NCBI RefSeq assembly: GCF_054482525.1
Contig: NZ_CM137006.1
Reading direction: 5' to 3' (one strand)
Length of the DNA stretch: 64,000 nt
Positions 50,253 to 50,950 of this stretch are shown here, one piece after another. The notes under the pieces were generated by a model. That model saw only the letters and a program-made list of their open reading frames with translations, searched no databases and had not been told where the DNA came from. Position numbers and translations under genes: made by a program. The stretch's first letter is position 1. Every line of letters starts with the position of its first letter.

Positions 50253-50450
50253 TCACCGGTTCTGGTGCAGAAGCTGCAGATGACGCAGGGTACGGACATC
50301 CTCTCTGGCCTGTTCGATACAGGGCAACAGTGCTGCCGAATCCGTTCTATCCTCATCGTTGTCAAAGATAATTCCCGATTCGCAGTCGATATTGTCCTGC
50401 AGCCACGCAATGAGGATATCCAGCGCTGTTTCCGTGGTTAATGATTTCAT
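50253..50450 (-). CDS. Small YeeW-like hypothetical protein (65 aa)
   Basis: ORF from ATG 50450 (MKSLTTETALDILIAWLQDNIDCESGIIFDNDEDR...); downstream of the toxin gene as in CP4-type elements. Confidence 0.45.
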   Translation of the reverse strand: MKSLTTETALDILIAWLQDNIDCESGIIFDNDEDRTDSAALLPCIEQAREDVRTLRHLQLLHQNR

Positions 50451-50611
50451 GTTGTTCCTGGTTATCAGTCGAAAGTGGGCAGGTCCGGCAGACATTCAGC
50501 GCTGGCATCCAGATGAATGAGACTGACGCCATAACGTTGGATGAGTGTGACAAACAGACGACGGAACGTTTTTGACAGCCCCAGGCGTTTAAGCCGCAGA
50601 ACCGGATATGA

Positions 50612-50950
50612 TCACGCATCGGTACGTAACAGATATCCGCTACCTGTGAAATGAATCCATTCTGATTCGCCGAAGTCACTGGTCTGGTGTGACAGTGAGT
50701 ACAACCAGGCGTTGTCCGTTTCCGTGATATGTGCGGTACTGCAGCGTATGCCGGCAAGGGTTGCAAATGGCGGTGGTGTGCAGGTTGACTGTTGGTCGGA
50801 TTCCTCTGCCACACGGAGTGAATAATCGTTTTCAGCGACGTTATTAATCAGTTCAGTGAGATTAACACCATCGACGTCAACGACAATTCGCCCCATGTTC
50901 AGTGCCTGCACATTAATGCTGTCGGCTTCCAGCATCAGGGAAAGTTTCAT
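50612..50950 (-). CDS. Hypothetical protein (112 aa) translationally coupled to cbtA
   Basis: ATG overlaps the cbtA stop (ATGA); no assignable motif. Confidence 0.4.

Follow-up and report, generated by a model that had tools for sequence, protein, structure and literature searches.

Positions 50253..50950 of the window, a stretch of 64,000 nucleotides (nt) from contig NZ_CM137006.1 of NCBI RefSeq assembly GCF_054482525.1, lie immediately downstream of a cbtA-family toxin gene on the minus strand and hold two outer open reading frames (ORFs), of 112 and 65 amino acids (aa). We consider it probable, at roughly 85%, that these two ORFs are the last two genes of a common operon-like cassette, and that both are mobile-element accessory genes that were co-opted behind cbtA. 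Judged by its sequence, the first ORF is a pseudogene of the DUF5983 family (DUF, domain of unknown function), in which a stop at codon 113 removes the second half of the C-terminal domain, and the second is a separate, intact DUF957 gene with an AGGA motif and an ATG of its own. This is an ordinary region that had been annotated before.

The region was compared across a set of 15 loci: the window, eight E. coli records, E. albertii, three contigs from metagenome-assembled genomes (MAGs), Yokenella, Citrobacter and Edwardsiella. Loci are cited by our own numbers (L001 and so on) where they have to be told apart. The three MAG contigs are E. coli-like, two of them being binned in Collinsella and one in a Lachnospiraceae MAG, and E. 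coli-like contigs in gut MAGs presumably reflect contamination. A scan of genome contigs gave only 12 loci, and three of the contigs end before the position of radC and DUF987. All occurrence counts in E. coli refer to 5,426 complete genomes, and exact-sequence look-ups of the ORF products were made in a collection of 15 billion proteins. The features on which the argument turns are the following.

50947..51321, minus strand: cbtA-family toxin gene, 124 aa, intact (Pfam CbtA_toxin 5.5e-62, 1-112/112)
50956..50959, minus strand: GGAG Shine-Dalgarno-like motif within the 3' end of cbtA, followed after 5 nt by the DUF5983 ATG (ccGGAGaaacgATG)
50947..50950, minus strand: ATGA overlap, read directly, of the DUF5983 ATG (50950..50948) with the cbtA TGA (50949..50947)
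50612..50950, minus strand: 112-aa ORF, closed by a premature TGA at codon 113 (50612..50614)
50465..50950, minus strand: full remnant of the DUF5983-family pseudogene, with 48 in-frame codons past the codon-113 stop and an end stop at 50465..50467
50456..50459, minus strand: AGGA Shine-Dalgarno-like motif, followed after 5 nt by the DUF957 ATG (taaccAGGAacaacATG)
50253..50450, minus strand: DUF957-family gene, 65 aa, intact, product identical to WP_000839267.1, 'DUF957 domain-containing protein'
50199..50225, minus strand: GC-rich terminator-like hairpin with a T-rich tail, from a consensus scan, its stem starting 27 nt past the DUF957 stop
50362..50814, minus strand: 150-aa ORF in the +1 frame relative to DUF5983, an out-of-frame artefact

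The reading frames behind cbtA

The first-pass annotation had placed the start of the 112-aa ORF where it overlaps the stop of cbtA as ATGA, and had read this as translational coupling to the toxin gene. Both the coordinates and the overlap were confirmed on the minus strand, and the coupling is real and conserved: the ATGA is present in all ten loci that we read directly, Yokenella, Citrobacter and Edwardsiella included, and a 4-nt overlap between cbtA and DUF5983 is annotated in six further E. coli loci. The window CbtA is 96% identical in amino acid sequence to the protein of E. coli ETEC1746 (L002) that the Prokaryotic Genome Annotation Pipeline (PGAP) names 'TA system toxin CbtA family protein'. 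Counterparts of the GGAG motif occur in other loci (AGGAGG in L004-L006, GAGGTG in L009), and from its position this motif would serve DUF5983 as a ribosome-binding site. With the ATGA overlap and a GGAG motif inside cbtA, reinitiation on DUF5983 would be possible for ribosomes that have just ended cbtA.

Two database proteins, P0002 (279 aa) and P0304 (196 aa), carry both the CbtA_toxin and the DUF5983 Pfam domains, and the sequence of P0002 holds CbtA and DUF5983 in one chain. Such proteins are rare and, because these two were found on one contig each, they are most likely to be mutations of the ATGA junction or sequencing errors.

Lying directly downstream of cbtA, with stop and start overlapping, the 112-aa ORF has the position of a DUF5983 gene. 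It matches the N-terminal domain of the family, DUF5983_N (PF25638), end to end (2.9e-28, 97.7 bits against a cut-off of 27, residues 4-59 on positions 1-56 of 56). Of the 90 positions of the C-terminal domain, DUF5983 (PF19419), it reaches position 43 only (3-43), and it does not contain the complete domain with its conserved FDW end. When translated through the stop, the window sequence shares 91% identity with the DUF5983 protein of ETEC1746, which is intact at 162 aa, and codon 113 is TGG (Trp) in that intact homologue and TGA in the window. A second change from TGG to TGA has cost the remnant the terminal Trp of the conserved FDW. Since the PF19419 domain is incomplete and the final Trp is lost, we regard the window locus as a DUF5983 pseudogene and not as a functional member of a family whose normal length is 162-163 aa. 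PGAP came to the same call on identical DNA ('DUF5983 family protein, pseudo, internal stop').

Among the compared loci the damage is confined to the window and to L001, which is identical to it; every other locus has DUF5983 intact (162-163 aa). The window allele is rare, being found at 100% identity in 7 of the 5,426 E. coli genomes; the next matches stand at 95.9%, and the one inspected at that level (L023) has an intact DUF5983. The 112-aa product is recorded on 53 contigs. Two residues of the C-terminal domain, His74 and Gly105, are invariant, and eight more (Asp79, Trp98, Pro116, Leu120, Gly124, Ser126, Arg130 and Trp162) are nearly so; only His74, Asp79, Trp98 and Gly105 are left in the 112-aa product. 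The AlphaFold2 model of DUF5983 has a confident alpha/beta C-terminal domain, with a predicted local distance difference test score (pLDDT) of 90-97, and a weaker N-terminal domain.

The 65-aa ORF that had been noted downstream of the 112-aa ORF is present at 50253..50450 on the minus strand; the ORF listing lengthens it to 80 aa by way of an upstream ATG. The AGGA motif in front of the shorter start would act as the DUF957 ribosome-binding site. Identity and invariant residues place the product in the DUF957 family: at least 999 contigs carry exactly this sequence, its protein cluster has 1,689 members, and it retains all 18 of the 18 invariant columns of a 30-sequence Enterobacterales alignment, the FDNDEDxTDS loop included. 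Across the loci DUF957 proteins are 62-67 aa long, except that three of the E. coli-type loci (L008, L027, L028) have one of 58 aa, and the AlphaFold2 model is a helix-loop-helix (pLDDT 73.5).

No match to the DUF957 protein was found in Pfam-A (2025 copy) or NCBIfam 20.0, and the precomputed Pfam entry is '-' for 120 of 120 listed relatives. It appears that a DUF957 model is absent from those libraries, rather than that the protein fails one. In a recent preprint the AntiFam entry ANF00264 is described as a neighbour of DUF5983 and cbtA with a confident dimer fold (bioRxiv 10.64898/2026.06.09.728211). Going by that description, ANF00264 is probably the DUF957 sequence set, which may have been filed as 'spurious'.

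The 65-aa ORF had also been described as YeeW-like, but that likeness belongs to its neighbour. K-12 YeeW (64 aa) is a truncated DUF5983 N-terminal domain (Pfam DUF5983_N, 2e-29), and in BLASTP it matches the 112-aa ORF (E=8e-26) and not the 65-aa ORF (E=2.1). DUF957 is present in K-12 as a remnant only.

A third overlapping ORF was listed at the first pass as well. It exists in the mechanical sense, as 150 codons in another frame, but it is not a gene. Its frame is open in the near E. coli loci, has one stop in L007 and has many in the divergent Yokenella, Citrobacter and Edwardsiella loci (L009-L011), and its C-terminal part is DUF957 DNA read out of frame. It was never called as a gene in the collection of 15 billion proteins. 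We rejected it as a real overlapping gene on the strength of these stops, of a ratio of nonsynonymous to synonymous substitution rates (dN/dS) of 1.3-1.4 in its frame, and of scans that gave it no family match.

Conservation of the cassette

As far as the DNA reaches in each locus, the genes stand in the order radC-DUF987-cbeA-cbtA-DUF5983-DUF957, down to 63-70% amino acid identity. This order is common to Escherichia, Yokenella, Citrobacter and Edwardsiella, and DUF4942 is usually the next gene. By the Nei-Gojobori method, applied to locus pairs that are phylogenetically non-independent, dN/dS in the coding frame is 0.14 for DUF5983, 0.15 for DUF957, 0.14 for cbtA and 0.20 for cbeA, and in the shifted frames of the same four genes it is 1.3-1.9, or 1.3-1.8 when only the two outer ORFs are considered. 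An alignment across cbtA loci had been proposed as a check on the two outer frames, with their loss in related elements as the outcome that would speak against them; both are conserved in the 15 loci. DUF5983 and DUF957 are therefore real genes, a result that does not in itself address a toxin-antitoxin (TA) role. Relative to its nearest intact relative, the window copy of DUF5983 has 10 synonymous and 9 nonsynonymous differences in addition to the stop; DUF957 and cbtA have 6 synonymous and 0 nonsynonymous, and 12 and 4, respectively. These counts hint that constraint may have relaxed on the dead DUF5983 copy.

A GCCAGCC...GGCTGGC hairpin followed by a T-run stands after the DUF957 stop in 14 of the 14 loci listed, with folding energies of -15 to -21 kcal/mol; in L008, L027 and L028 the minimum-free-energy fold yields only a short stem. 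This hairpin is probably the 3' end of a cbeA-cbtA-DUF5983-DUF957 transcript and, with it placed past DUF957, the cassette resembles one transcription unit that would end there. The genes also travel together. We counted cbtA in 13,718 places, DUF5983 in 12,947 and DUF957 in 13,085, or about 1:1:1. Approximately nine in ten E. coli genomes have the DUF5983 and DUF957 proteins in the toxin operon, the median number of places per genome being three. Co-occurrence with the toxin gene is thus conserved, and co-transcription with it is likely.

Homologues away from cbtA and the proposed role of the pair

Neither family is restricted to toxin-antitoxin loci. The DUF5983 C-terminal domain is found on its own, as a protein of some 105 aa (33% identity, pairwise E=2e-12), on 2,565 plasmids, 2,087 of which are conjugative and 2,238 of which come from Klebsiella. 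On pKpQIL (L029, pKpQIL-6e6, 5105..6288) the order is psiA...N6-methylase-DUF932-DUF5983, then SLT and traM; the C-terminal-domain gene adjoins DUF932 there and lies about 1 kb or less from traM. More than 2,000 Klebsiella plasmids bear copies related to this pKpQIL gene, and the DUF932 of the window is 60% identical to that of pKpQIL. A Serratia plasmid has psiB-psiA-...-DUF932-DUF5983 followed by mobC/mobA, Pantoea has DUF1281-DUF5983 with a 4-nt overlap and then a methylase, and in L021 (5663..6330) a DUF3085 gene is joined through ATGA to a DUF5983 C-terminal-domain gene. Phage homologues exist too, and the PHROGs match is to phrog_5003 only, which is of unknown function. Homologues of DUF957 (49% identity) are carried by 1,431 plasmids, 1,309 of them conjugative; the IncHI2 plasmids (L032, L033, 4974..5781) have a 103-aa DUF957 protein, a 4-nt gap and then DUF3085. 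In five of the five plasmids inspected, cbtA is not annotated in the 10-12 kb stretch around the match. DUF3085 is itself uncharacterised, is enriched in broad-host-range plasmids and adjoins RadC (PMC12826799). The recurrence of DUF957, DUF3085 and DUF5983 as neighbours in varying order suggests a functional link among them.

Contig look-ups by exact protein for the distant homologues returned mostly contigs of 1-2 kb, the long one being L021 only, and a protein search with the DUF5983 C-terminal-domain alignment returned so many E. coli entries that no distant context came out of it. Profile comparisons of CbtA with DUF3085, of DUF5983 with CbeA and of DUF5983 with DUF3085 showed no similarity. 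A search of PDB sequences with the DUF5983 and DUF957 alignments gave no match, PADLOC gave none, and no informative structural or sequence relatives were found for the two AlphaFold2 models.

The plasmid homologues occur without cbtA, beside DUF932, DUF3085, DUF1281, psiA/psiB and methylases and near oriT, and it is this setting that leads us to read the pair as accessory genes. DUF5983 is broken here and a stub in K-12, and it therefore appears to be dispensable. We suggest that DUF5983 and DUF957 would be accessory genes of the conjugative-element type, which on chromosomal islands may both have been wired into the cbtA transcript. By analogy with their plasmid neighbours, their role would most likely lie in establishment of the element or in anti-defence, rather than in neutralising or delivering CbtA.

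Several points weigh against this interpretation. The near 1:1:1 co-occurrence and the conserved ATGA coupling would be expected just as well if the genes were functionally tied to the toxin. Among the proteins seen, the DUF5983_N domain occurs only in those linked to cbtA, and it may have arisen as an adaptation specific to the toxin. With 33-49% identity the plasmid homologues are distant relatives, and the terms 'leading region' and 'anti-defence' amount to guilt by association, drawn as they are from annotations. The non-independence of the locus pairs behind the dN/dS values counts on the same side.

A bolder extension of our reading, to which we attach only a small probability, is that DUF5983, DUF957, DUF3085 and DUF932 form a guild of conjugative-element early genes that in islands would have come under the translational control of CbtA, with DUF5983_N perhaps acting as a modulator of CbtA or as a link between the toxin and an anti-defence or establishment function. 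The ORF pair in the window is itself of minor interest, being a routine annotation with one member dead and with an identical allele flagged as a pseudogene in RefSeq. The wider interest lies in the fact that two proteins in the operon of a well-studied toxin are very common in E. coli, that their relatives lie near oriT on thousands of conjugative plasmids, including Klebsiella pKpQIL, and that K-12 work on CbtA/CbeA was done with a cassette from which both the DUF5983 and the DUF957 genes are missing.

The first-pass annotation had proposed that the tight coupling points to a third component of the toxin-antitoxin module. In its fuller form, DUF5983, with or without DUF957, would be a modulator, second antitoxin or chaperone of CbtA/CbeA, with the stoichiometry fixed by the coupling. 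In a TA-mining study CbtA_toxin/DUF5983 figures among the recurrent pairs, with DUF5983 in the downstream position every time (PMC10790755), and this listing favours the proposal, as do the ATGA overlap kept across genera, the 1:1:1 ratio of the three genes and the confinement of DUF5983_N, among the proteins seen, to those linked to cbtA. However, DUF5983 is a pseudogene here beside an intact cbtA, and K-12, in which the two-component function of CbtA/CbeA (YeeV/YeeU) is established, has nothing but the 64-aa stub. Homologues of the C-terminal domain and of DUF957 are common on thousands of plasmids without cbtA, the same ATGA junction also couples the C-terminal domain to an unrelated DUF3085 gene, and DUF5983 has no profile similarity to CbeA. 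We therefore find the proposal unsupported and think it unlikely, a shade more so than the guild just described; a true toxin-antitoxin role of any kind for DUF5983 or DUF957 is about as doubtful as these two.

It has also been proposed, for ANF00264, that a programmed ribosomal frameshift is involved, with 25 proteins carrying both matches (bioRxiv 10.64898/2026.06.09.728211), in which case DUF5983 and DUF957 would be two halves of one protein. The genes are indeed adjacent, 11-31 nt apart; two database proteins (P0058, P0111) extend DUF5983 past its normal stop into the DUF957 region, and an E. coli record (H91) labels the DUF957 stretch 'DUF5983 family protein'. But the gap is 11, 14, 16, 19, 29 or 31 nt and the relative frame is either +1 or +2, in L009-L011 the DUF957 frame stays open for only 5-12 codons ahead of its ATG, DUF957 has its own ATG in every locus and an AGGA-like motif in most E. 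coli-type loci, and it occurs on plasmids without DUF5983. The extended proteins, of 200 aa, read the DUF957 DNA out of frame. With the frame relation not fixed and the downstream frame closed in the divergent loci, we rejected a programmed-frameshift fusion, which we judge very improbable.

Least probable of all, to the point of being negligible, is that the whole 698-bp region is one decayed gene, as the first pass had allowed, with no functional ORF: ORF 1 is indeed a truncated, decayed DUF5983, with a remnant that extends to 14 nt before ORF 2, but ORF 2 refutes the idea, being an intact and conserved member of a separate family with its own motif and start, an exact protein on so many contigs, a dN/dS of 0.15 and nonsynonymous differences from its nearest relative at zero against six synonymous.

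Island surroundings and likeness to known systems

The cassette closes a block of DUF932, antirestriction, RadC, DUF987, cbeA, cbtA, DUF5983, DUF957 and DUF4942 genes, which is located at the distal end of CP4-44-like integrative islands. The neighbouring features in the window are these.

51411..51777, minus strand: cbeA antitoxin gene, frameshifted by an extra G in a G-run (C6 on the plus strand, 51727..51732)
52639..58582, minus strand: island block with a GTPase, an Ag43-like autotransporter of 973 aa, DUF932, an antirestriction protein, RadC and DUF987
49326..50168, minus strand: DUF4942 gene, 280 aa, with its own Shine-Dalgarno-like motif (Pfam DUF4942 1.6e-66)
47363..48709, plus strand: IS4-family transposase, beyond the island end, with a short remnant ORF (area 42665..48968)

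By alignment to L002 and L023 the cbeA frameshift falls near codon 20, and cbtA is intact. The cbeA of L001 has the same G-run insertion, and PGAP calls it 'cbeA, frameshifted'. A GTG upstream, at 51791, opens a 126-aa frame that holds the whole CbeA domain, and antitoxin might still be made from this GTG or by slippage on the G-run.

Past the hairpin, DUF4942 matches part of a PHROG labelled DNA methyltransferase. Of six E. coli loci sampled, two (L023, L026) have a frameshift in the gene, and in two more (L027, L028) it is absent or truncated. As DUF4942 is often damaged or replaced, the boundary past the hairpin looks like a hot spot of recombination or decay.

Beyond DUF4942, a stretch at about 49159..49245 has what we take to be the 3' end of tRNA-Phe (TTCGATTCCGAGTCCGG-CACCA, minus strand), and it is probably the distal direct repeat of the island. 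ARAGORN found no tRNA in the window, and an Rfam scan of 48500..52500 gave one sub-threshold hit, to the P9 small RNA (25 bits against a cut-off of 43), at this same stretch. A repeat search returned nothing relevant. At the position that corresponds to the IS4 transposase, L001, which is unaligned to the window there, has an IS110 fragment according to PGAP. Capsule genes of the kpsF/kpsE/kpsD type come next (SIS+CBS and Poly_export matches), and the island therefore abuts a group 2 capsule locus.

DUF5983 (PF25638 and PF19419; also known as Aec77 and L0008, with K-12 YeeW as a truncated member) is matched above the cut-offs in both domains, and like other DUF5983 genes the window copy sits immediately 3' of cbtA with a 4-nt overlap. 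In contrast to intact members, it yields a 112-aa fragment only, without approximately half of the C-terminal domain. DUF957 is the PGAP name of a family that includes L0009 of the O157 element flanking the locus of enterocyte effacement (LEE); the window product keeps the invariant residues of that family and is likewise placed after DUF5983 and before the hairpin.

The leading regions of conjugative plasmids, with psiB, psiA, ssb, anti-restriction genes, methylases and DUF932, offer a second comparison. The DUF5983 C-terminal domain is found there beside DUF932, in a gene between psiA and traM or mobA, and leading regions and the island have DUF932, an antirestriction gene and RadC as shared neighbours. 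The DUF5983 of the island differs from the leading-region form in its extra N-terminal domain and in following cbtA instead of DUF932.

Among toxin-antitoxin systems, the closest is the type IV system CbtA/CbeA itself, whose operon the two ORFs probably share, given the overlap, the short gaps and the single hairpin. CbtA/CbeA as described has two components, whereas the cassette in the window has four genes. Three-gene modules, for instance toxin-antitoxin-chaperone (TAC) systems and paaR-paaA-parE, depend on their third gene for regulation or for antitoxin stability. The cassette resembles these in having a small third gene packed tightly into a toxin operon, but DUF5983 differs from the third genes of TAC and paaR-paaA-parE in being dispensable and in having homologues outside the toxin-antitoxin context.

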